Shown here piece after piece: positions 436 to 47,217 of a stretch of 64,000 nt of DNA. The stretch covers positions 41,456-105,455 of the IMG/VR virus record IMGVR_UViG_3300035180_001847. One strand, given 5' to 3'. Positions within the stretch are counted from its first letter, which is position 1, and each line of letters starts with the position of its first letter. The notes below the pieces were generated by a model. That model was given only the letters and a program-made list of their open reading frames with translations, was not told the origin of the DNA and ran no database searches. The stretch is from a virus. The position numbers were made by a program, and so were the translations under genes.

Positions 436-987
436 ATGGCAAGGAAAGAGTTTGTCGCTGGCAAAGCGGCTGGTAGGCAGGAAGGTTATACTTCAACACA
501 CTTCACGCCCGAAACGGCTGTAATTGATTTACTTCAATTCATCCCGTTTGAAAGTGGAGATATTGCACTTGATCCTTCTGCTGGCGTAAATAAAGTTTGG
601 TTCAATAATTTTCCATGCAATAAAGATTACTGTGAAATTGATGAAGGTTTAGATTTCTTTGAGTATCCAAAACAAGTTGATTGGATCATAGGCAATCCGC
701 CTTTCACTGATTTTATAAAGTTTCTTATGCACAGCCCCAGCATTGCAAGAAAAGGGTTTGCTTATCTTATCGGGCATAGTCGTCTCAATCAGGTTACACC
801 GAAGCGATTGAGTATCTTGGAAGAAAAAGGTTTCTATTTATCAGGCATCCAAATCTGTACATTCAAAGCATGGTTTGGCAGGTATTACTTCCTGATTTTC
901 ACTCGCTCCAAGAATGAAGGTATCGGCTATTCACGAAAGAATTATAGCCATGAAGTCTCTACGCCGCAGAACAATGTGTGCTGTTAA
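436..987 (+). CDS. DNA N6-adenine (amino) methyltransferase, cassette-like
   Basis: HFTP, LDPSAG (motif I) and IIGNPPF (motif IV); AAGGAG RBS; flanked by attC-like sites. Confidence 0.8.
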   Translation: MARKEFVAGKAAGRQEGYTSTHFTPETAVIDLLQFIPFESGDIALDPSAGVNKVWFNNFPCNKDYCEIDEGLDFFEYPKQVDWIIGNPPFTDFIKFLMHSPSIARKGFAYLIGHSRLNQVTPKRLSILEEKGFYLSGIQICTFKAWFGRYYFLIFTRSKNEGIGYSRKNYSHEVSTPQNNVCC

Positions 988-1051
988 AATTTGAATAATT
1001 TTACGGTTTTATCTCGTCCCGCTCATATGCAGATAGCGCAAACCGTTGGCC
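966..1051 (+). mobile_element. Degenerate attC-like site
   Basis: GCAGAAC-AATGTGTGC ... GCAGATAGCGCAAACC-GTTGGCC; overlaps the 3' end of the methyltransferase ORF. Confidence 0.55.
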
Positions 1052-8576: not shown

Positions 8577-8686
8577 CTAAATACAAAACATTTTTTAAAT
8601 AAAACCGATTTTTAATGACGGAAATCATTTCATTCAAACGATTTGTCCATAAATAAAAAATTGAAAAATGAATAAGGAAAATATAG

Positions 8687-9037
8687 ATGAATAGTTCTAT
8701 CATAGGCGTTGGTAAAGTTGTGGTTGAGTTTGCTGCTGTAATGGATAAACCAAATATCAATGCTAACATTGTTGGTATAGTTGGAAAAAATTATTCTTTT
8801 AAGGTAATTTTTCAATCTTGTCCAATGTCATTATCTAAAAACAATTCTATAAATGATTTGTGGTTTCAGACGAGTGACCACAGATGGATTCCAATGAAAA
8901 TTGGAAATAAGCAATATTGTTCTTTTATTCCTTATAAAACAATTTTTATAAAAGATATTGGCGAAGAGCCAATTTCCATAATGGATGAAAACAACAATCA
9001 TTATATTTTATATCCAAATGATTTGGTAAAGGAATAA
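8687..9037 (+). CDS. Hypothetical protein, possible SH3b-like domain
   Basis: V.DKPN.NANIVG...W......WI pattern resembles SH3b. Confidence 0.5.
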   Translation: MNSSIIGVGKVVVEFAAVMDKPNINANIVGIVGKNYSFKVIFQSCPMSLSKNNSINDLWFQTSDHRWIPMKIGNKQYCSFIPYKTIFIKDIGEEPISIMDENNNHYILYPNDLVKE

Positions 9038-16866: not shown

Positions 16867-18861
16867 TTGAATGATAAAATTACATTCGCCATAGATAAAT
16901 ACCAGCTTCTTAGCGATTCAGAAAATGAGCAACTTGCTAAACTTAAACTTTTTATCTGTCGTGAAGGAAATAACCTGCATAATTTACCTATATCATGGGA
17001 TACGATTATTGCAGCGAAAAATTCACTGGTGGGAAAACCGATTCTAACAAATTATATTCCATACAAAGATGACTTTGGAAGTCACGATCCTCAGGAAAGC
17101 CCAGTGGGATGTTTCATAAATGAAAATGATATTTCCGAAGAAAAAGATGAATATGGTAATAAGTGGTTGACAAGCATTGGTTATATATGGAAAGGATATT
17201 TTCCCCAAGTATATGATGTTCTAAGAAAAAGAGACAATAAAAAAGAAAATTCACCCGTTTCAATGGAAATAGTTGTGTTAGATGGCGATAAAAATGATGA
17301 TGGAATGTTTAACAGTGTTTCATTATTTAGTTTTATGGGCGTGACACTTCTGGGTTCTAAAGTTCAACCCGCCATTCCAAATGCCAGAGCAACATTGAAT
17401 TTTACGATGATGTTAGAACAAACCAAACAGCTTCTTCAATATTCATATAATCATATTGATTTTCAGATACCGTCCAATGTAAAATCTAATGCTCAAAAAG
17501 GTTTAGATTTATATTTTGAAAATAAAAGGGGCGGAAATTCATTTAATTTAAGCATGGCTCGTTATCTATCTAAAAATAAGATGATAGAACCAGATAAAGT
17601 TAAAAAGCTCCATCGGGCACTACTATCCAAATCCAAACAAGACCTTGCCAAAGATGGGAATAATTATATTTCATTTATGTTGCTTGGTGGGAAAGCTGGA
17701 TTGGATTGGTGCAATGGTTTAATAAATGATATGAGTAAGACTGATAATCAGAAATCGTCTTACTTTGCGGAGGATGAATATATGAGCACTAATGAATATG
17801 GAAAAGGCGAAGCTATTAAAGTTGATAAATCATTTAAGGCAATGGATATTAATTCATGGGGAAATGTGGATAAAACTTCTTTGAGAAACAAGGTTTTAAA
17901 TGCGAGTAATTATAAAACATTGGTAAATGATGTTTATGCTTTAGTGGAATCTGGATGGGAAGATGCTCCCAGTGAACATCTCAAATATCCAATCATGGTT
18001 ATTAAAAACGGTGTTGCTGTTTATAATAGATATGGTCTTTCTGCGGCATTGCAACGCGCAGAGGGTCAAAATGAAAGTGATGTTGTTTCAAAAATTAATG
18101 GTATTTATAAGTCATTAGGATTGGACAACGAAAATAAAAGCAAGGAGGAAAAAAGTTCAATGGCAAAAAAAATGAAAGAAGGTTCTTCCGAAGAAGAAAA
18201 ACAAGAATCGCCTGAGGAAGAAAAGAAAGAGGATATGGCGACTGAAGGTTCTAAGGCAGAAGAAGAACAAGAAACCGCATCCGAAGAAAAAGGGGAGCAA
18301 GAACAAGGTAGGGGTGATAAGTCTGATTCCGAAAAGAAAATGGCTAAGTCTAAGAAATCTGCTGAAGGTTCTCCTGAAGAAGAAAAACAAGAATTTCAAT
18401 TGGAAGATGACAAAGAAGATGCAAAAATGTCTCTCGATGACTATGCCGATGTTGGAGCAATGATGGCTATGCTTGGTATGGAGACTGAACAGAATCGTTC
18501 TCTTGCAAAAGAATTGGTTTCTCCTGAAATGGGAAATTTGTTTGCCGAGGTTTTTGCTAAGGTAAAAGAATTAGCTGAATTCAAAGCGGATATTGAAAAA
18601 GAGAAAATGGCTTATGAAGTTGAAAAAACCATGAGTGAAGTTGAATTGCCTGCAACCAAGAAAGAAGAACTTAAGACTGAAGCATCAAAATTTTCTTTGG
18701 GGAATATTGATATTTGGAAAAACAAGGTCAAAGCCGAGGCCTATGAATTTTCAAAAATCAATAAAATGGAAAAGGTAAAAGACAATATCAAAAGATATGC
18801 CCTTCCTTTTAACGTGAAAGCCGAAAAGAAAAATGATTCTTTATGGCAAGGCAATGGTTAA
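16867..18861 (+). CDS. Prohead protease/scaffold fusion (YonD-like) with inserted domains
   Basis: N-terminal NLHN...KPIL...H...PVG...G.IWK...SMEI...GVTLLG...PA protease-like pattern; acidic repeats and coiled-coil scaffold at the C-terminus. Confidence 0.75.
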   Translation: MNDKITFAIDKYQLLSDSENEQLAKLKLFICREGNNLHNLPISWDTIIAAKNSLVGKPILTNYIPYKDDFGSHDPQESPVGCFINENDISEEKDEYGNKWLTSIGYIWKGYFPQVYDVLRKRDNKKENSPVSMEIVVLDGDKNDDGMFNSVSLFSFMGVTLLGSKVQPAIPNARATLNFTMMLEQTKQLLQYSYNHIDFQIPSNVKSNAQKGLDLYFENKRGGNSFNLSMARYLSKNKMIEPDKVKKLHRALLSKSKQDLAKDGNNYISFMLLGGKAGLDWCNGLINDMSKTDNQKSSYFAEDEYMSTNEYGKGEAIKVDKSFKAMDINSWGNVDKTSLRNKVLNASNYKTLVNDVYALVESGWEDAPSEHLKYPIMVIKNGVAVYNRYGLSAALQRAEGQNESDVVSKINGIYKSLGLDNENKSKEEKSSMAKKMKEGSSEEEKQESPEEEKKEDMATEGSKAEEEQETASEEKGEQEQGRGDKSDSEKKMAKSKKSAEGSPEEEKQEFQLEDDKEDAKMSLDDYADVGAMMAMLGMETEQNRSLAKELVSPEMGNLFAEVFAKVKELAEFKADIEKEKMAYEVEKTMSEVELPATKKEELKTEASKFSLGNIDIWKNKVKAEAYEFSKINKMEKVKDNIKRYALPFNVKAEKKNDSLWQGNG

Positions 18862-20752: not shown

Positions 20753-21418
20753 ATGAGTGAGGAAAAAACAACTAAATTAAAATCAGGAAGATTGAATTCC
20801 AAAAAATCTCAAAGAGAAATTGATTTAGAAAAAAAAATTCTTAAAATGCAGGAGCAACTGGAAGCAATAAAAGAGCCTCAAACTGAAGGCTCATCTATTT
20901 CAGAAGAAGAAAGAATTGACCCAACTGAATATATAAAGGTTATGTCATTGACTAATCATCTTTTAAATCTTACAACCCAGCCGAGAGGCGGGGGTAAAAT
21001 ATATTCATTTTCAAAGGGATTTGGTGAAGTAAAAAGAATTCCATATTCTCATCTTGCTGATATTATTGAAAATCATCAATCTTTTGTTGAAGCTGGGAAT
21101 TTTTATATTATGGATAAACGTGTTATATCTCAGCATGGTTTGGATGATGCTTATGAAAAAATTCTTGATAAAGATAAGATTGAACAGATATTCAATGGAA
21201 ATAAGAATGATGCTTTAAATCTTTTTAAAATGGCTAATCCTAAACAGCAAGGAATGATAATTAATATGCTTATTGAAAAATTACGGGATGATCCAGAGTT
21301 TGATTTAAATGTTATTGAAATTATTTCAAAATATTCCAAAGTCAATCTTCAAGAAAAAGCAATTTTCGCAAGAGAATTTATGGAAGATGAAGAGAAAGAT
21401 GAACAAGAAGAAAAATAA
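20753..21418 (+). CDS. Hypothetical head-module protein (YonA-like position)
   Basis: Gene order. Confidence 0.6.
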   Translation: MSEEKTTKLKSGRLNSKKSQREIDLEKKILKMQEQLEAIKEPQTEGSSISEEERIDPTEYIKVMSLTNHLLNLTTQPRGGGKIYSFSKGFGEVKRIPYSHLADIIENHQSFVEAGNFYIMDKRVISQHGLDDAYEKILDKDKIEQIFNGNKNDALNLFKMANPKQQGMIINMLIEKLRDDPEFDLNVIEIISKYSKVNLQEKAIFAREFMEDEEKDEQEEK

Positions 21419-21487
21419 TACGATTCAATTTTTCAAAATTTAGTTGAAGATAGAAATTAGATAATAAAAAATGATGGAGGTTAAAAA

Positions 21488-21955
21488 ATGGGTACTACTT
21501 ATCAGGAAATCAATGACCTCTTCATGCTACAAATTCAGGATTATAGATTAATGGATTTGTATAATACATCCATATTGAATACCACTACGGATTTTGATGT
21601 ATATTTAATGGGTTTTATGCTTTTGGCAATACCCGACTTTATATATTGTACTCAAGACCTTTCAAATAGAGATGATGCAGCCAGAACATTTAATATAGTT
21701 TTGACAGATGAAACAAAAAAGATTTTATCTAAATTTATGGTTTTGGAGTGGTTGGGCAAAGAAGTAAAAGATGTTTTGCAAATGCGTTTGCATGTTCAAG
21801 ATGCAGATTTCAAAACTTTTGCAGAGGCAAATAATCTCAATGCTAAACAAGCATCCTATAATATGTTAAGAGAGGAATGCTCTCAATTATTGACAGACAT
21901 CGCCTATAAAAATAATAATTGGAATAATTGGATTTCTGGGGTTTTTTATCCATAG
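21488..21955 (+). CDS. Putative head-tail adaptor
   Basis: MGTTYQEI..F start, size and position. Confidence 0.6.
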   Translation: MGTTYQEINDLFMLQIQDYRLMDLYNTSILNTTTDFDVYLMGFMLLAIPDFIYCTQDLSNRDDAARTFNIVLTDETKKILSKFMVLEWLGKEVKDVLQMRLHVQDADFKTFAEANNLNAKQASYNMLREECSQLLTDIAYKNNNWNNWISGVFYP

Positions 21956-21964
21956 GTGGGAAAC

Positions 21965-23251
21965 ATGACATATAAATTTATAAATGCATCTAAACCCATG
22001 CAAAAAACTCCAAAGGAAATATTAACTAATGATTTTCAAGAGAATCTAACAGACCAATTTAAGCAATCTACTGATTGGTACACCATCAAAGAAGAATTTC
22101 CATTCGCATCTGGAATTTATAATGATATAGATGTAAGAATAACTCATGCAATCGATAGTGTAACAGGAAAGAATTTGGGCGATGATTTTAAAAACATTTT
22201 ATTTCCAGATTTAAACCATCAATTTCAAATTGGTTCAATGTATTTTTTTGATAAAAATTATTGGATAGTCATAAATAGCGAAATAAAAAGAAATCTTGCG
22301 GCATCTGTTACCATAAAAAGATGTAATGAAGAATTGAGATGGAAAGATAAAATAACGGGAAAGTTTTATTCAGTTCCATGTAGTATTGGTTACGATGTTC
22401 GTATGCCAAGAAATTATTCTACGGCTGGTTCTGCATTGGTTTTGCCTTCAGGATTCGCTGAAGTTATGACTCAGTTTAATGCTGCGACAAATACGATTTA
22501 TCCTAATCAAAGATTTTTATTTGGAAATACGAATAATTGGATTGCGTATGTGATTGAAGGTGGAGGTTTAAATAATTTTCAAAGATTACAAACCACAGAT
22601 GGAATGAGTGCCGGAATACTAAGATTGACTATGAGGACAAATCAAGTCAATGTTGGACAAGATGATTTAATAAATGGGATTGCGGATGCTTTTGAAAATA
22701 TTTACACACTGTCATTAAATACAAATTCCGTGTCCATAACAAAAGACAATAGTTTACAATTGATTGCCAATGTGAAATTGAATGGAGCAAATGTTGATAG
22801 ACCGCTAACTTGGTCAACCAGCGATTCTTTGGTCGCAACAGTGGATTCAAATGGTGTGGTTACAGCAATTGGAGTTGGAAGTTGTATGATAAGTTGCAAT
22901 ATAAGGGACAACGTTGTTGTCAGTGATTCTTGTGCCGTTACTGTAACATTATCTTCTGTGGATAATTATTCTATTATAATGACACCAATTTCAAACTCAA
23001 TTCTTGAAGGACAAACGGTTACATTTACCACAACGTTGATATTTAATGGAAACTCTTTGGCAGATGCATTTACATATTCGATTGATGCTTCAAACACCGT
23101 GCCTCAATCAAATTTTGTATTTACCATTGTGGATGGTCACAGTTTTTCAATTAAAAATAATTCAAAATATCTAATTGCTCCATTGAAAATTATGGCTGTA
23201 TCTGGAACGTATTCTCGAACTTTCGACATTCTTTTGAAGGGAGCGTGGTAA
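21965..23251 (+). CDS. Putative head-closure protein with Ig-like (Big_2) domain
   Basis: LTWSTSDSLVATVDSNGVVTAIGVG Big_2 motif; position. Confidence 0.65.
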   Translation: MTYKFINASKPMQKTPKEILTNDFQENLTDQFKQSTDWYTIKEEFPFASGIYNDIDVRITHAIDSVTGKNLGDDFKNILFPDLNHQFQIGSMYFFDKNYWIVINSEIKRNLAASVTIKRCNEELRWKDKITGKFYSVPCSIGYDVRMPRNYSTAGSALVLPSGFAEVMTQFNAATNTIYPNQRFLFGNTNNWIAYVIEGGGLNNFQRLQTTDGMSAGILRLTMRTNQVNVGQDDLINGIADAFENIYTLSLNTNSVSITKDNSLQLIANVKLNGANVDRPLTWSTSDSLVATVDSNGVVTAIGVGSCMISCNIRDNVVVSDSCAVTVTLSSVDNYSIIMTPISNSILEGQTVTFTTTLIFNGNSLADAFTYSIDASNTVPQSNFVFTIVDGHSFSIKNNSKYLIAPLKIMAVSGTYSRTFDILLKGAW

Positions 23252-23252
23252 T

Positions 23253-23819
23253 ATGAATACGGCAGGAATGATTTCAGATCAAAGTGCATATAACCCATAT
23301 TCCGATCTTCCCAATTTTAGTTACAACATCATTTCTCATCTTATGGGGGCAAATGAGGATTTTTGGCGTTTGATTTACTATAATGACCCCGATGCATGGA
23401 ATGTAAATGTTGATGCAAACCTAACTGCTTCACAAAAGGCATCCCTTATTTTCAATGGAACTGATGACGAAACAAAATTTAGAATTTTTCTGGATGAAGG
23501 ACAAGTAAGTGCATGGCTGGTTGAGGCAACAATTGTCAGAATATTTCCTTATTCTATTTTTTCTGAAAATAGAACGGTTGGTACTTTGACAATGGCTTTT
23601 GATGTTTTCTCTCATTATCGCATAAATACACTTAGTAATTATACGACAAGAATAGATACTTTGTCCCAAATAATTCTTCAAACATTCAATGGGTTTTATA
23701 TAGGCGGGCTTGGAAAATTAACAGTTGATGTTTTAAGTAATAAGCAAGATAGGTTGTATCCATCGGGGCAAATACCATTTAAAGGTAAAAGAATAACAAT
23801 GTCAACGAAAATGGGGTAG
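23253..23819 (+). CDS. Putative tail terminator/neck protein
   Basis: Size and position. Confidence 0.5.
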   Translation: MNTAGMISDQSAYNPYSDLPNFSYNIISHLMGANEDFWRLIYYNDPDAWNVNVDANLTASQKASLIFNGTDDETKFRIFLDEGQVSAWLVEATIVRIFPYSIFSENRTVGTLTMAFDVFSHYRINTLSNYTTRIDTLSQIILQTFNGFYIGGLGKLTVDVLSNKQDRLYPSGQIPFKGKRITMSTKMG

Positions 23820-23823
23820 AAAT

Positions 23824-24603
23824 ATGAATAATTATAGAGACATATATTACATTTATGATAAACCCGTTCCCTATAAAGGTTTAAATATTTATCCAATTAC
23901 AATGGATAAATATTTAGAATTTACATATTTTTCCCAATGCCTATTATTTGAAAAAAATGATTTTGATGCATCTTTATCACTAGAAGAAAAAATGAAAATA
24001 ATATCCATGACGGATTTGGAATACATATATTTAAAAGGTGATAAAAGTAAAATTCCATTGATAACTATGTTAATGAATCTTTTATCTTTGTGTTTTAAGT
24101 TAAAAGATGAGGATAAATTAAAACTAGATTTCGATGATAATGTAAAACCAATAATAATAATAAATGACATTGTTTTAAATTCAAGTGATTTTGATGAAAT
24201 AAAAACAATAATATGTGAGCAAAATCTTGTTGATCTTCCAGATATAAATGTCCAAAAAGAAGTCAGAGATGCAATGAAGCAAGCAAAGGATTATGAACAA
24301 TCTTTATCGGGGAATAAAATGGCCTCGCTCGAAGATTTATTTATTTGCATAATTACATCCACAGCATTAAATTTAGAACAAATTTACGGATTGACAATTA
24401 GAAAATTTATAAAGGTTCTTCAAAGGGCTGATATAAAATTGCATTATCAAATTTATAAAACAGCATCGTTATCTGGAATGGTTACTTTCAAGGAAAATTC
24501 AATAAAACATTGGATGTCAGAAATAAAACCCAATAAAAATGACGGTTTACTTGATAAGGAAGTCGTAGAAAACAAGATAAATAAAATTCAAGGAGGAAGT
24601 TAA
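23824..24603 (+). CDS. Hypothetical tail-module protein
   Basis: Gene order; IKHW C-terminal motif. Confidence 0.55.
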   Translation: MNNYRDIYYIYDKPVPYKGLNIYPITMDKYLEFTYFSQCLLFEKNDFDASLSLEEKMKIISMTDLEYIYLKGDKSKIPLITMLMNLLSLCFKLKDEDKLKLDFDDNVKPIIIINDIVLNSSDFDEIKTIICEQNLVDLPDINVQKEVRDAMKQAKDYEQSLSGNKMASLEDLFICIITSTALNLEQIYGLTIRKFIKVLQRADIKLHYQIYKTASLSGMVTFKENSIKHWMSEIKPNKNDGLLDKEVVENKINKIQGGS

Positions 24604-24606
24604 TAA

Positions 24607-25641
24607 ATGAAAAAATTTATGGTAAGCGTTGCTGATGTTAGAATGTACGACACCAGCAATGGAAATTTACTTGCTATCGGTAAAACATTGTTGGATAGCA
24701 ATGTGACTATGAAGGTGGCAAATACCGATATTCGTGGTGGACGCGGGGCGCAACTTCAAACAATTTATTTCCACTCACCGGATTTGAACTTTGTTGTAAC
24801 TGATACACAATGGAATTTGGATTTCTTATCGGCGACATTGGGAAGCGATATTGTTACTGGCTCTAATGTTTTCACAGAAGAAACAGTGACGTTGGGTGCC
24901 GCTGGGGTTGGAACGGTTTCGGGAACTCCTTTAGCAGTTGATAGTACAACTATTTATGGTTGGGTGACATTGCCAAATGGTGTGGTTGAAAAAGTTGTGT
25001 TTACTGGAAGTGACTTCACATCATCTTTGGGAACTGTTGGGGATGTTGTATGTATTCGTTATTATCATTTGAACAGTTCCGCTCGTTCAGTTACCATTAA
25101 TGCAGATGTTCTTCCAAAGAATGTTCGTTTGGAACTTGAAACGTTATTGGTTTCATCTGCTGCAACAACAAATAGAATTGGTGTTGTTCAGATTTCAGTG
25201 CCAAAGGCTCAATTAACTGGTAATTTTACTTTGACAATGAAATCAGATGGTGTTTCCACTACGCCTTTGGATTTGCGCGCTACTGCTGCCGATGATGCCC
25301 TAAGTGCTGCTTGTAACAATGTTCCTACTTATGCCAAATTGATAGAAATTCTTGATTCCGCGAATTGGTATGATAATTTGCTTGGTTTAAGTATTGAAGG
25401 TGGGGATTTTACTTTAGTTAATCCCGCCACAAAACAACTTTATGTTTACGCCATTCCTCAAAATGGTGCGCCATTCCTAGCACCCACAACGGATTTGACA
25501 TTCACATCTGGAACTGTGGGGACTGCAACAATTAGTTCAACGGGATTGGTTACCACCGTTGCGGCTGGAACTTCCTTGCTGCATGTCACCATAACTGCTG
25601 CACCTCAATATGATGCTTCTGTAACAGTAACTGTTTCGTAA
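24607..25641 (+). CDS. Major tail (tube) protein with C-terminal Ig-like domain
   Basis: DIRGGRG motif; Ig-like ATISSTGLVTTVAAGTS; hairpin downstream. Confidence 0.75.
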   Translation: MKKFMVSVADVRMYDTSNGNLLAIGKTLLDSNVTMKVANTDIRGGRGAQLQTIYFHSPDLNFVVTDTQWNLDFLSATLGSDIVTGSNVFTEETVTLGAAGVGTVSGTPLAVDSTTIYGWVTLPNGVVEKVVFTGSDFTSSLGTVGDVVCIRYYHLNSSARSVTINADVLPKNVRLELETLLVSSAATTNRIGVVQISVPKAQLTGNFTLTMKSDGVSTTPLDLRATAADDALSAACNNVPTYAKLIEILDSANWYDNLLGLSIEGGDFTLVNPATKQLYVYAIPQNGAPFLAPTTDLTFTSGTVGTATISSTGLVTTVAAGTSLLHVTITAAPQYDASVTVTVS

Positions 25642-28420: not shown

Positions 28421-29425
28421 ATGGCGAAAATTAAATCGATTGAAATAACAAATGAACAATGGCAATCCGTTAATCCACGCAACCGAAAAATAACGGATGA
28501 ATTTCTTCGAGAAAGTATGCAACTTTCAGACCAAACCTTGAAGCAATATTCTTCCGCTCTTCAAATTTATTTTTATTGGGTGAAAACGGAATGTGAAGAT
28601 AAGGATTTCGATAAACTTAAAAGTAAAGATTTTTTGATGTTTCAAAATTATCTAATAAGAAGGGGGCTGTCATCTTCTGCTATTAGACTTAAACGAGCGG
28701 CTGTTTCATCTTTGAATCAATATGTTGAGACATATTTTGAAGATTTGAATTTTAAAAATTATATAACTAAAAAAATTCCTGCGCCAGCAATGGTGTTTGT
28801 AAATGAAAAGAAGCCCCCCACTCTTGAAGAATATGAAATGATTTGTGCCAAGCTGGAAGAAATGCAGGAATGGCAAAAATTGGCTTATCTACGCTTTACA
28901 TTTACAACTGGATGCCGAAGGAGCGAATCGGTTCAGTTATTAAAAAGTATTGTTGATTCTGAAAAGAAAATTGTTGAAGTAAAAACAAAAGATGAGAACG
29001 GTAATCCCATAATTAAACAAGCGTCTTTTTATGTTACCAATCCCATACGATGTAAGGGCAGGGGAAAAGCTGGAAAGATTCGCACATTTCAGATGGATGA
29101 GGCGGCCATGCTTGCAATTAAAAAATGGTTGTCTGTTCGCGGAAATGATGATTGTGAATATGTTTTTGTTTCTAATATAAAAGGAAAAATAAAACAATTA
29201 AATCCAGCGACTTTAAATAAATGGTCGAAAGGATTGTTTACAGAGATTTTAGGAAGAAGATTTCACCCCCACATTTTAAGAGAAGCAAGGGCAACAAGTC
29301 TTGTCGTTGAAGGTGGGAAAGATATAAAAGTTGTTCAAAAATTATTAGGCCACAATAGTCCTCAAACTTCCGAAATTTATGTAATTAGAAATGATGAAGA
29401 TATGAGCGATGAGGCATTTACATAA
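28421..29425 (+). CDS. Tyrosine recombinase (YomM/XerD-like)
   Basis: N-terminal SAM-like domain; TGCRRSE, KG, HILR, LGH and Y catalytic set. Confidence 0.9.
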   Translation: MAKIKSIEITNEQWQSVNPRNRKITDEFLRESMQLSDQTLKQYSSALQIYFYWVKTECEDKDFDKLKSKDFLMFQNYLIRRGLSSSAIRLKRAAVSSLNQYVETYFEDLNFKNYITKKIPAPAMVFVNEKKPPTLEEYEMICAKLEEMQEWQKLAYLRFTFTTGCRRSESVQLLKSIVDSEKKIVEVKTKDENGNPIIKQASFYVTNPIRCKGRGKAGKIRTFQMDEAAMLAIKKWLSVRGNDDCEYVFVSNIKGKIKQLNPATLNKWSKGLFTEILGRRFHPHILREARATSLVVEGGKDIKVVQKLLGHNSPQTSEIYVIRNDEDMSDEAFT

Positions 29426-29483: not shown

Positions 29484-32400
29484 ATGGCGGCTAAAGATTA
29501 TACATTATTATTGAAAGCATCCATCGATTCAACTACACTGCAATCTCAAATAGATGCCTTGTCTGAGAAATATTCAATTAACTTAAAGATAAATGCAGAT
29601 GATACGGCAATAGCCAATTTACAGACTAAAGTGCAACAGGTACAATCTCAATTAGCACAAACTCCAAATACCGATTGGATAAATGCTATGAGTACCGAAG
29701 AAGCATTAGATATAATTAAACAAAAAATTGAAGATATACAAGCATCTGGAAAAGGCATGAACGTTGGATATACAATATCCAGTGTTCCCGCGCAGGATGA
29801 AAATGGCGATTCTTTTGATGCGGTTACTAAAGCCACAATGAGTTATACTGATGCTCTTGGAAATTTACAAACAGCGACATTGAAATATGATGAATCTTCC
29901 AATATGCTTGTTGAATCCAACAACAAACTTTCTGAGAGCATGGCTCAAATTCAATCTCAAGCAATAAAAGAAAATGCTATTTTTGACGCGCAACAAAAAA
30001 CAATAGAGAGATTACAAACCTCTGCCAGTGAATTTTTGGCTAAATCAAAATTATTAGATCAAGGTAATCCAAATGTCCAAAGTGCGGTTGCAATTGCCAA
30101 ACAAATGACTGATGGCGCGGATAGGTCATCCGAAGAAATGATTAAACTTGGGGAAGCTCTAAAAATTGCTAAAGCGGGAATTGATGGCACTAAAGTATCC
30201 GCTTTATCCTTTGCTGAAGGCATGAGAAATGCAATTGTTAGAACCACTGAGTATGCTTTATCAGTGGGTTTATTGTATGGAGCTTTAAATCAATTGAAAC
30301 AAGGTATTCAATATATCATTGATTTGAATGCTGAAATGACAAAAATTCAAGTATTACAGGTTGAAGGTGCAAAAACAACGGAGCAAATAAATTCTTTGGC
30401 TGGGAGTTTCAACAATTTAGCTAAAGAATTGGGGACAACGACCATAGAAGTTGCAAAAGGCAGTGTGGAATGGTTGCGGCAGGGTAAGACAATTGCTGAA
30501 ACACAAGAACTGATTAAATCAACAATGATGTTGAGCAAGTTGGGTGCATTGGATTCCGCTTCTGCAACTGAGGATTTGACGGCTGTTTTGAATGGATTTC
30601 AAATGCAGGCTAGTGATGCGAGTAGGGTTGTAGATAAGTTGGTTGCAATAGATAACATAGCGGCAACCTCGGCGGGAGAATTATCTTCAGCATTACAATA
30701 TTCTTCTGCCGTTGCAAATGAAACGGGTGTTTCATTTGATAACCTGACGGCATATATTGCAACAGCATCTTCACGAACAAGATTGAGCGCAGAGATGATT
30801 GGACAAGCATTCCGAACAATGTTTACAAGAATGCAATCAGTGAAATCTGGTGCAATAGATGAAACTGGAATGAATTTGAATGCTGTTGAAAAATCCCTTC
30901 ATGGAGTTGGAATAGCTTTAAGAGATTCAACAGATTCGTTTAGGCCTTTGGAAGATGTAATTGCTGATGTTGCTGGAAAATGGAAAACATTAGATGAAGT
31001 TCAACGCGCTCAAATTGCAACGGCAATTGCTGGTCAACGTCAATCACAAATATTTCAAGTATTGATGCAAAATTGGGGAGATGTAGCCAAATATGTTTCC
31101 GCTGAAACAGATTCGGTTGGATTGGCTACACAACGTTACGACATATATTTGAAATCTGTTGCCGCATCTCAAGCTAAGTTTGCAGATTCCCTACAGGCAT
31201 TATGGCAATCAACCATTTCATCTGGAATGATAACGTGGTGGATAGATTTGGGAACGGCTTTGCTGAATGTTTTTTCAAATGCGGGTGGATTAAATTCGGT
31301 TATTTTAATTTTGACGGAAAGTTTTTTGATTTGGAAAAGTGCCGCCATTGGTGGTGCAATAGCATCTTTGTTTGATTTTGTGTCAACTGTCAAATCGGCG
31401 AATGCCGCTTTATTGGTAATGGATGCTGAAATTGACGCGAATCCTCTTGGATTATTTGCTGCTGCTTTGGCCGCTGTAACTATTGGAGTAATGGCTTGGA
31501 AAAATTCAATTCAAACCACTGATGATAAAATAAAATCATTAAACAAAGATATAGATGATTTAAATTCAAAATTAAATAAGGATAAAAGTGGTGCTGACAA
31601 CCTGAGAAGTTTAACATCCGAGTTGGAAAATTTAAGGTCAAAAACAAGTTTGACAATAGATGAACAACAAAGGATGTTTGATATCCAACAGCAGATACGA
31701 GATATTTTACCGAGCGTGGCGGGACATTATGATGACGAAGGGCATTTCATATTAGATGATAGCGTATCTTTATCAAAATTAGTTGATTTAAAAAATCAAG
31801 AATTGGAATTGGATAGAAAAAAGCTGGAAGAAAAAACCATCGATAGAATAAAGACAGAGACGCAAGCATATAAAGAGCAAATTGCCGTCCTTGATAGAAT
31901 GGTTCATCCAGTCACAGAAAGACAGTATGTTCCTGGAAAAGGCATGACGTTTATATCACCAGAAGATATTGCCAATCAAAAACAAGCCATTGCTGATTTG
32001 ATTGATAGCATAAAAAGCGATTTTTCTGGATTAACTCTTACAGAACAAAGAAATCAAATAAAAATGATTTCGGATGCGCTTCAAGGAATGGGAACTACGG
32101 GAAAAGTTGCCGCTCAAGAATTAGCAACATCATTAACGAATGCGCTAGAAGCGGTTTCTCATGATGCAAGAGATAATAAGACTGCCATTCAATCAATAAA
32201 TGAAACATATCAAGATTTTCAATCTACAATAAAAACTCTCACGGACACTAATAAAATCCTTGATGATTTGATGGCTAAATCTGAAACGGGAAAATTTACA
32301 TATTCAGATATTGAAGCATTGGCAAAAGCATATCCTGATTACTTAAATGTTCTTAGAGATGAAAATGGTCAATTAACCATAAACACCGATGCAATTAGAC

Positions 32401-46129: not shown

Positions 46130-46171
46130 CTCGCCCAACCGATAGCCAGTTGGCCGCACGCTTTGTTAGTC
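46130..46171 (-). mobile_element. attC-like left arm (R'' GACTAAC), apparently truncated
   Basis: Minus strand GACTAAC-AAAGCGTGC contains the stop codon of ORF 46166-46360; complementary to GTTAGTC at the 5' end of the same cassette. Confidence 0.55.
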
Positions 46172-46360
46172 ACCGCTCATGCTGTCAAACACATTCAATA
46201 GTGTTTCATCAAACGTGCCAACACCTCTCATTTCTTCGAGGCGTACGGCGCATTGAAAGAAATCATTTTCTTTGAGACAATCTTTGGCAGATGTCAACAA
46301 TGTTTCGATAACCTTGATGCGTCGCTGCAACTCTTGTTTGCAAACATCTTCTGTTTTCAT
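46166..46360 (-). CDS. Hypothetical protein, gene-cassette-like
   Basis: AAGGAG RBS right after an R' box; stop codon inside R''. Confidence 0.65.
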   Translation of the reverse strand: MKTEDVCKQELQRRIKVIETLLTSAKDCLKENDFFQCAVRLEEMRGVGTFDETLLNVFDSMSGD

Positions 46361-46384
46361 AATTCTCCTTTTAGCAAGATGGGG

Positions 46385-46509
46385 GACTAACGGCTTGCGT
46401 CAGTTGCGGGGCGATTTGCAAAGCCCGCAAGTATCAAAATTTACACTGCAAAAGGAATTACATTTTTTGCAGCACCAGTAATCCCCATCAACTGCGCGCC
46501 TTGTTAAGT
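46385..46509 (-). mobile_element. attC site (best preserved, 125 bp)
   Basis: ACTTAAC-AAG-GCGC-G-CAGTTG-A-TGGGG...CCCCG-CAACTG-ACGC-AAGCC-GTTAGTC: R''/R' boxes, unpaired spacer, L-box stem with extrahelical bases. Confidence 0.75.
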
Positions 46510-46648
46510 GCGCCAAAGTTTCGCCAAGTTCCTTATAAAGCAACCCTGCTTCTTCTCGCGTAAGTATATAATCTTTCATACCCTCAAGGGGACGAAGGCA
46601 AACAAGATCGGAAACACCTTTATACGTTGAAATCATTTTGTTTTGCAT
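46400..46648 (-). CDS. Hypothetical protein whose C-terminal RanBP2-like zinc finger is encoded inside the attC
   Basis: AGGAG RBS; ...AHLTRRAVDGDYWCCKKCNSFCSVNFDTCGLCKSPRN. Confidence 0.6.
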   Translation of the reverse strand: MQNKMISTYKGVSDLVCLRPLEGMKDYILTREEAGLLYKELGETLAHLTRRAVDGDYWCCKKCNSFCSVNFDTCGLCKSPRN

Positions 46649-46719
46649 AGTAGCTCCTAACTATGTTTTGAGCGGTGAAATCACCGCCTAAATACCCAAA
46701 TTAATCTTAATTATCTTCA

Positions 46720-46932
46720 TTAGCCAATCGTATGAACGGCTTGCTCTGGATAGAACTTGACTTCACCACCCCAAGCATACCAAAGATCAGTTACGTGTTC
46801 AACGATTTCAGACGCTTTATTCTCAAGTTCATCAGGAATAACGAGAGTTGGATTATCGCCGTCCCACCTGATTATTGCGCCTTCATACTCTTTTGCAAGA
46901 GCCTTTTCAAGAAGTGCCTTCCAGTTTTTCAT
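46720..46932 (-). CDS. Hypothetical protein, gene-cassette-like
   Basis: AAGGAG RBS immediately after R' GTTGGGC. Confidence 0.65.
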   Translation of the reverse strand: MKNWKALLEKALAKEYEGAIIRWDGDNPTLVIPDELENKASEIVEHVTDLWYAWGGEVKFYPEQAVHTIG

Positions 46933-46952
46933 GAGTCTCCTTTTCCTAGATT

Positions 46953-47084
46953 GCCCAACAGACTTGCGTTAATGGTTTTGTCGCTCATAGTTCGCGCAAA
47001 TTAAATGAATGCATTGTTCGCAGGGTTCGCCATAGACATATTGTTTGGTATCGGTGGCGAAATCCCCTGCGTGCTTTGTTAAGT
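46953..47084 (-). mobile_element. attC-like site (132 bp, partly degenerate)
   Basis: ACTTAAC-AAAGCACGCAGG...CCATTAACGCAAGTCT-GTTGGGC followed by RBS+ATG. Confidence 0.65.
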
Positions 47085-47217
47085 GTACTTTATGTTGATT
47101 ATGAGCGTCTCTGACACCGAACGCCCAGCATCGAAAGCCACAAATTGAGCAGGTGTAATATTTTGTCTTTTTACCGCGATGGGTAATTTCAAATTTAGCA
47201 CGATGATGTTTTTTCAT
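46969..47217 (-). CDS. Hypothetical protein with C2H2-like zinc finger, reading through the attC
   Basis: C-x2-C-x12-H-x5-H (CSIC...HNQHKVH), then the attC-encoded LTKHAGDF...CEQC tail. Confidence 0.55.
   Translation of the reverse strand: MKKHHRAKFEITHRGKKTKYYTCSICGFRCWAFGVRDAHNQHKVHLTKHAGDFATDTKQYVYGEPCEQCIHLICANYERQNH

Follow-up and report, generated by a model that had tools for sequence, protein, structure and literature searches.

A cassette cluster in a tailed-phage genome

The 64-kb window that we analyzed (64,000 nucleotides) is part of a virus record of 105,455 bp with direct terminal repeats. The record is that of a tailed phage, and its genes include those for a tape measure protein, a portal, a minor tail protein, a DNA polymerase and a RecD-like helicase. 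Within the window, a cluster of four small cassettes on the minus strand (46133–47217) has a GC content of 42.7%, compared with ∼31% in the flanks. Candidate attC sites were scored with two covariance models: R1, built from an alignment (A3) of ten phage elements taken from the genome of the window and from a second IMG/VR record (G001; 48.9 kb, ∼50% GC), and R2, built only from the 68 best sites of bacterial cassette arrays (alignment A4). The features of the cluster, together with the related features found elsewhere in the phage genome, are as follows.

46133–47217, minus strand: four-cassette cluster, a CALIN; no integron integrase
46953–47084, minus strand: neighbouring attC (R1 31.8 bits, E 2.6e-6; R2 15.4 bits)
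46654–46658, minus strand: ribosome-binding site AGGAG, 5 nt before the ATG of the next entry, overlapping the R′-like core (46655–46661) of an eroded upstream site
46400–46648, minus strand: cassette ORF of 82 aa, comprising variable residues 1–47, an arm-encoded linker and a C-terminal, predicted RanBP2-like C4 finger
46385–46509, minus strand: complete attC of 125 nt (top strand is the minus strand; R2 56.1 bits; R1 111.6 bits; bottom-strand fold)
46133–46171, minus strand: truncated attC of 39 nt, with arms only and no centre, after ORF 46166–46360 (R2 18.1 bits, E 1e-4 locally)
283–415 and 966–1051, plus strand: further attC-like sites (R1/R2)
G000:C1:1697–1824, 17150–17853, 21377–25103 and 29614–30220, outside the window: further attC-like sites (R1/R2)
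28421–29425, plus strand, and G000:C1:7474–8310, minus strand: Xer-like tyrosine recombinases

The sites at 46953–47084, 46385–46509 and 46133–46171 are minus-strand sites that each follow a small ORF, and so form a co-oriented array. Elsewhere in the phage genome we found ∼15 more attC-like sites, which fall in several clusters and share the strand of the small ORFs around them (R1 or R2 scores of 15–57 bits). The number of integron-type cassettes in this one phage represents an unusually heavy load.

The two tyrosine recombinases of the phage scored 37–42 bits against TIGR02249, for which the cut-off is 265, and were thus classified as Xer-like and ruled out as integron integrases. With both of them scored, no integron integrase (IntI) was found in the phage genome, and the cluster is therefore locally a CALIN. 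One of the two Xer-like genes sits immediately ahead of the tape measure gene.

Identity of the element at 46385–46509 and its bacterial relatives

In the 5′ to 3′ direction of the minus strand, the 125-nt element consists of R″, a 5-nt spacer, L″, a 4-bp stem, a 71-nt centre, a 4-bp stem, L′, a 7-nt spacer and R′, with the following coordinates.

46503–46509, minus strand: R″ core, in agreement with RYYYAAC at all 7 positions; residues 48–55 are encoded by this core together with the spacer and L″
46487–46497, minus strand: L″ box with bulged (extrahelical) bases, placed by structure and covariation (A3, A4) and by model alignment
46483–46486, minus strand: 4-bp stem after L″
46412–46482, minus strand: variable terminal structure of 71 nt, encoding the predicted finger core (W58, C60, C63, C74 and C77)
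46399–46411, minus strand: 3′ stem and L′ box (L′ at 46399–46407), encoding P80, R81, N82 and the stop codon at 46400–46402
46385–46391, minus strand: R′ core, the expected crossover point, 3′ of the ORF; agrees with GTTRRRY (6 of 7) except for a T at the sixth base

The centre contains an internal 8-bp hairpin, the AAC triplet of R″ and the GTT triplet of R′ are both intact, and model alignment places a bulged A in L″. The R″-to-R′ span, which we derived independently, equals the one given in the initial annotation.

That annotation had named the element an attC, and each of the model-based tests agreed. The bacterial-only model R2 scored 46386–46509 at 56.1 bits (E 6e-13 over 159 kb), the phage-trained R1 scored 46385–46509 at 111.6 bits, and HMMs made only from the arms of bacterial sites matched the two arms in the correct order on one strand. 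The ten phage sites align well at both ends and share a structure of 19 pairs in which 78.9% of the cells are paired; for the 68 bacterial sites the figure is 89.2%, versus 25–43% after the pairing partners were slid. Nine of the pairs change on both sides among the ten phage sites, and the covariation score was 0.30 for these ten and 0.46 for the 68 bacterial sites versus 0.13 in shuffles. In addition, the minimum free energy fold of the bottom strand of the window site has the same architecture as the members of the bacterial family.

One could instead suppose that the ORF is a small zinc-ribbon gene of the ordinary kind, without integron ancestry, and that the likeness of its 3′ end to an attC is fortuitous. 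Taken alone, the inverted repeat (11 nt, 82% complementary) gives a weak signal, the window site did not stand out from background in a naive arm-pairing score, and the folding energy of the site is not significant (z = −1.41). However, true bacterial sites of the family range from +0.29 to −4.25 in the same measure, so that the folding z-score or the inverted repeat alone would wrongly suggest chance. Against such an origin stand the match to a model that was built from bacterial sites only, the matches to both arm HMMs, and the presence of similar sites beside it, all of them placed at the 3′ ends of small ORFs to form an array, with ∼15 more in the genome. We consider this explanation extremely improbable.

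The bacterial loci were collected from a species-genome collection with a short arm pattern and were then searched with R1. The search yielded 136 sites, arranged in dense co-oriented arrays at intervals of 300–1000 bp and located mostly in metagenome-assembled genomes (MAGs) of Anaerolineales and other Chloroflexota. The attC family is abundant in these Anaerolineales-like Chloroflexota cassette arrays, and three of the five bacterial genomes that carry arrays of the family also encode an IntI above the TIGR02249 cut-off (336–481 bits). At one bacterial locus (L139) the arrangement is that of a classical integron, with a site 720 bp upstream of an intI in divergent orientation. From the covariance models, the covariation, the co-oriented array and the link of the family to IntI, we conclude that 46385–46509 is an integron-type attC.

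The site departs from several positions that are near-invariant in its family, and the T at the sixth base of R′ occurs in none of the 68 bacterial sites; these departures suggest that the site may be decaying. It might thus be a fossil, an integron-derived cassette whose attC no longer recombines in an AT-rich phage and in which only the protein-coding role is maintained, the dual use being historical. The lack of an integron integrase in the phage, a pairing of R″ with R′ that is weaker than in the G001 copy, the eroded or truncated state of the neighbouring sites and the modest folding z-score (−1.41) would all fit such a history. On the other hand, the G/TT crossover triplet, the AAC of R″, the stem of the L boxes and the bulges are intact, and R2 still gives the site 56 bits. 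Moreover, CALIN sites of virulent phages that have no integrase of their own were shown to recombine with IntI1 (PMC9892861), and a host integrase could act in trans. Judging from these sequence features, we regard a fossil site as unlikely, and 46385–46509 as a candidate for a site that can recombine today.

The tail encoded by the site and its homologues

The initial annotation described ORF 46400–46648 as having no stop before the attC and as translating through it, which is what we found: the frame covers ∼86% of the 125-nt element and ends at a TGA (46400–46402) that lies inside L′, within the 3′ arm. Residues 48–55 are derived from the 5′ arm, residues 56–79 from the 71-nt centre, and residues 80–82 and the stop from the 3′ arm. 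The description of the translation was also exact, in that the left arm gives LTRRAVDG and residues 56–79 show the pattern W-x-C-x2-C-x3-C-x6-C-x2-C. RanBP2-type fingers follow the pattern W-x-C-x(2,4)-C-x3-N-x6-C-x2-C. The ORF upstream in the array, 46969–47217, also translates through its attC (46953–47084), with the same frame through R″, and its site-encoded tail contains a CxxC motif. A second CxxC, in the cassette-encoded part of the same protein, would be a possible partner for it.

An AlphaFold (AF2) prediction made with the alignment of the homologous tails described below gave a pLDDT of 91–93 for residues 61–80. When the model was compared with the PDB by Foldseek, nearly all of the top ∼40 matches were RanBP2/NZF fingers, among them those of ZRANB2, HOIP, TRABID, NUP358, NUP153, MDM2, RYBP, TAB2 and Npl4 (TM 0.8–0.9 on the target, rmsd 0.4–0.6 Å), with E-values of at least 0.37 that are weak because the domain is so short. 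In the HMM comparison with zf-RanBP, the window protein matched no Pfam family even at E ≤ 10, and so reached neither the gathering cut-off of PF00641 (27 bits) nor that of DUF7577 (28 bits). The protein had no match in PHROGs, and searches of 50,697 phage records with the region (BLASTN) and with the 82-aa protein (TBLASTN) returned none. We predict that the tail of the 82-aa protein is made and that it binds zinc.

A scan of 1.84 billion representative proteins identified eight further small proteins (72–80 aa) that match only the last ∼35 residues of the window protein, giving nine proteins with this module in all. A protein search can detect in-frame fusions only, and the collection is therefore subject to ascertainment bias. 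Nine residues are invariant in all nine proteins (D54, W58, C60, C63, C74, G75, C77, P80 and R81), and 16 other module positions vary. The variable positions include both extra cysteines, C59 and C67. The latter occupies the position of the RanBP2 Asn, which is Cys in the window copy, Val in P0007–P0009 and Asn in P0010. P0010, which is 54% identical in the module, keeps all of the putative ligands and shows the exact RanBP2 pattern with Asn; it scored 21.1 bits against PF00641 (E 1.9e-4), below the cut-off of 27. The resemblance to a RanBP2 finger with Asn replaced by Cys, as first proposed, is consequently borne out by the spacing of the ligands, the AF2 model, the Foldseek matches and P0010, but the substituting Cys itself is not conserved.

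Most copies of the module are 80–100% identical; the most divergent are 43–66% identical and still retain all of the zinc ligands, the Trp, the Gly and the Pro-Arg. Two more distant matches, P0011 and P0012, are membrane proteins with DUF7577 repeats, and score 42.8 and 34.1 bits against that family. As a protein, the module had no bacterial copy in the scan of the genome collection. The sole match in a metagenome scan, L007, was rejected as a false positive because it is an FtsX/MacB-type permease.

Selection on the loop as a protein, which the initial annotation had postulated, is supported at the protein level only, by the invariance of the Trp, the four Cys, the Gly, the Pro and the Arg in the nine homologues. 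The DNA comparison was confined to two near-identical copies, those of the window and of G001, whose loops differ by two nonsynonymous changes at non-ligand positions and by no synonymous change. Every homologue reads on into the attC, with the frame and the Cys codons conserved.

The module sits on eight unrelated N-termini: compared within a ten-sequence database, the N-terminal parts matched one another at E ≥ 0.11 versus E ≤ 6e-10 for the modules. P0007 and P0008, for example, have identical modules and unrelated N-termini. Conversely, P0001 and P0002 share an N-terminus that is 96% identical, and in P0002 the arm-encoded linker leads to another, different Cys-rich tail. Immediately ahead of the finger, each module protein shows the R″-spacer-L″ consensus translated in one of two frames, and each ends one residue after Pro-Arg, with the stop supplied by the conserved L′ box.

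At the DNA level, a search of IMG/VR found just one other copy of the module, the near-identical site in G001. That record holds several more elements that share these arms and have centres of their own, each located where a small co-oriented ORF has its 3′ end. Near identity between the window and G001 extends across the site from a few bases before R″, and the 5′ part of the ORF differs. The similarity continues ∼25 nt past R′ into the leader of the next gene, which simple cassette exchange does not predict. The ∼25 nt from the R′ core to the next ATG are alike in three otherwise different junctions (window 46360–46391; L008:655–690; L009 ∼8660–8700), and this common leader, which includes a ribosome-binding site, reaches beyond the expected crossover point.

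A further explanation for the open frame is read-through that has no function as protein. Gene callers would then have extended ORFs through stop-poor hairpins, and the conservation of the tails would reflect the homogeneity of the DNA in a young attC subfamily. The bacterial sites are indeed poor in stop codons. Of the 68 bacterial sites, 48 (71%) are open over at least 80% of their length in the frame used in the window and 37 (54%) in a second frame, compared with 34% after the centres were shuffled, so that open frames through these sites are the rule. Where the frame does end, the stop is most often found in L′, at a distance of 18 nt from the site's 3′ end. Most of the bacterial tails look like plain translations of a hairpin, many of them low in complexity, and the prevalence of module copies that are 80–100% identical could likewise be read as homogeneity of the DNA.

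Some of the sites, however, encode other classic zinc motifs. A site in the second phage (L008:1942–2070) specifies a CPxCG...CxH tail, and one in a bacterial MAG with an IntI (L095:938–1071) specifies two DnaJ-type CxxCxGxG motifs; further Cys-rich tails are found at L095:2816–2941, in P0002 and at window 46953–47084 (CxxC). Several other observations also speak against read-through devoid of function. At 43–66% identity the module keeps every zinc ligand, the Trp, the Gly and the Pro-Arg, and both of the non-ligand Cys change; the peptide is predicted with high confidence to take a known zinc-finger fold; and the ORF has a good ribosome-binding site. We consider it quite improbable that these tails have no role as protein.

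A proposed dual-use model and its relation to known systems

Together, these results argue for a model in which the attC is carried on a small phage cassette and its centre is read as a finger, one stretch of DNA serving both as the folded hairpin and as a metal-binding tail. We regard this model as probable. The variable centre is the part of an attC with the least sequence constraint. In the model, the conserved 5′ arm (R″, spacer and L″) would be read as an eight-residue linker, the 71-nt centre would encode a RanBP2/NZF-like C4 zinc ribbon of ∼25 residues, and the conserved 3′ arm would give Pro-Arg-x and the stop codon. Because the ORF reads through both the arms and the centre, the same DNA would be shaped by two demands, that of a single-strand hairpin and that of a folded tail. 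The finger may provide these tiny cassette proteins with a stable folded or interaction domain, and the cassettes would probably have come into the phage from integron-bearing hosts.

How the module came to lie on different ORFs is a further matter. The initial annotation had proposed that the site could fuse its finger onto upstream ORFs, and the eight unrelated N-termini, together with the one N-terminus that is found with two tails, agree with such fusions. The canonical route does not, in that the IntI crossover at R′ falls downstream of the module and moves an ORF along with its own site; it therefore cannot place one module on different ORFs. Either the formation of cassettes with this attC subtype or recombination inside the conserved arms may instead have brought it there.

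A broader and more tentative proposal is that the attC family acts as a general in-frame tagging junction. The arms would serve as a fixed linker and stop, the centres would repeatedly have evolved into miniature zinc-binding domains (RanBP2-like, CPxCG-type and DnaJ-like CxxCxGxG), any ORF that gained such a site would receive a folded tail, and recombination in the arms would shuffle the tails. We consider this possible but rather less likely than not to hold for the family as a whole. If it were true, attC sites would be units of protein-domain exchange besides gene exchange.

attC sites and CALINs are well known (Cury et al. 2016, PMC4889954) and are present in phage genomes (Qi et al. 2023, PMC9892861). 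The window cluster resembles them in its R″ and R′ cores, its L boxes with bulged bases, its variable centre, its promoterless small ORFs in a co-oriented array, and its location in a phage that has no integrase. It differs from known attC in that an ORF runs through most of the site and that the centre is predicted to encode a folded domain. attC sites are generally treated as non-coding DNA in which only structure matters, and cassette annotation tools permit almost no overlap with an ORF. The ACID database, for instance, tolerates an overlap of at most 15 bp between ORF and attC (PMC2674596). Short ORFs in a recombination site are known from attI1 of class 1 integrons (ORF-11, ORF-17 and ORF-18), where the core site can supply a stop (PMC8876359). 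Those ORFs are leader peptides involved in translational coupling at attI, whereas the putative finger of the window would be a domain appended to a cassette protein at attC. Cassette insertion driven by the integrase outside att sites is also reported (bioRxiv 10.1101/2022.09.11.507474), and could explain the entry of cassettes into the phage.

Compared with the RanBP2/NZF fingers (PF00641; ZRANB2, NUP153, NUP358, TAB2 and Npl4), the window tail has the same W-x-C-x2-C-x10-C-x2-C framework followed by x2-P-basic, and its predicted fold superposes on solved fingers at 0.4 Å. It differs from them in its phage and bacterial setting, in scoring below the Pfam threshold, and in having Cys (Val or Asn in homologues) in place of Asn. 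A second likeness is to DUF7577 (PF24463), a family of repeated small zinc ribbons in bacterial membrane proteins; P0011 and P0012 contain two to three repeats of the form aromatic-W-x-C-x2-C ... C-x2-C. The window protein, however, gives no match to this family, and P0011 and P0012 are proteins of 226–246 aa.

In a full-text literature search we found no description of an attC centre that encodes a folded domain or a finger. Thus, attC sites, CALINs and phage CALINs were already known, and the attC-encoded finger is, as far as that search showed, the new part. Its interest lies in a site that would be constrained in two ways, by its use in recombination as a folded single strand and by its encoding of a finger that is found on many unrelated small proteins. 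If the model is correct, a function can reside in the variable part of an attC, and cassette proteins in this large environmental attC family would be systematically mis-annotated at their C-termini. The in-frame junctions at R″ would offer a readable marker for the way in which ORFs come to be joined to attC sites, an unsolved question, and the phage itself would be an example of a virulent-type tailed phage that is well populated with integron cassettes.

Two minor observations concern other copies of cassette sequence in the phage genome. The segment 46619–46708 of the window is duplicated at G000:C1:18061–18149 (90 nt, 93% identity). It comprises an R′-like core, a ribosome-binding site, codons 1–9 of the ORF and, from an eroded attC, the 3′ half together with a small hairpin. 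The second copy has a frame that stops after 21 codons, overlapping the start of another gene. In addition, the tail of ORF G000:C1:29874–30113 (L131:1375–1614), which is encoded by the attC at C1:29859–29977, is loosely like the finger module, of which the second CxxC is missing. Decay of a module copy may account for it, a reading that comes from resemblance alone and that we did not count as evidence.
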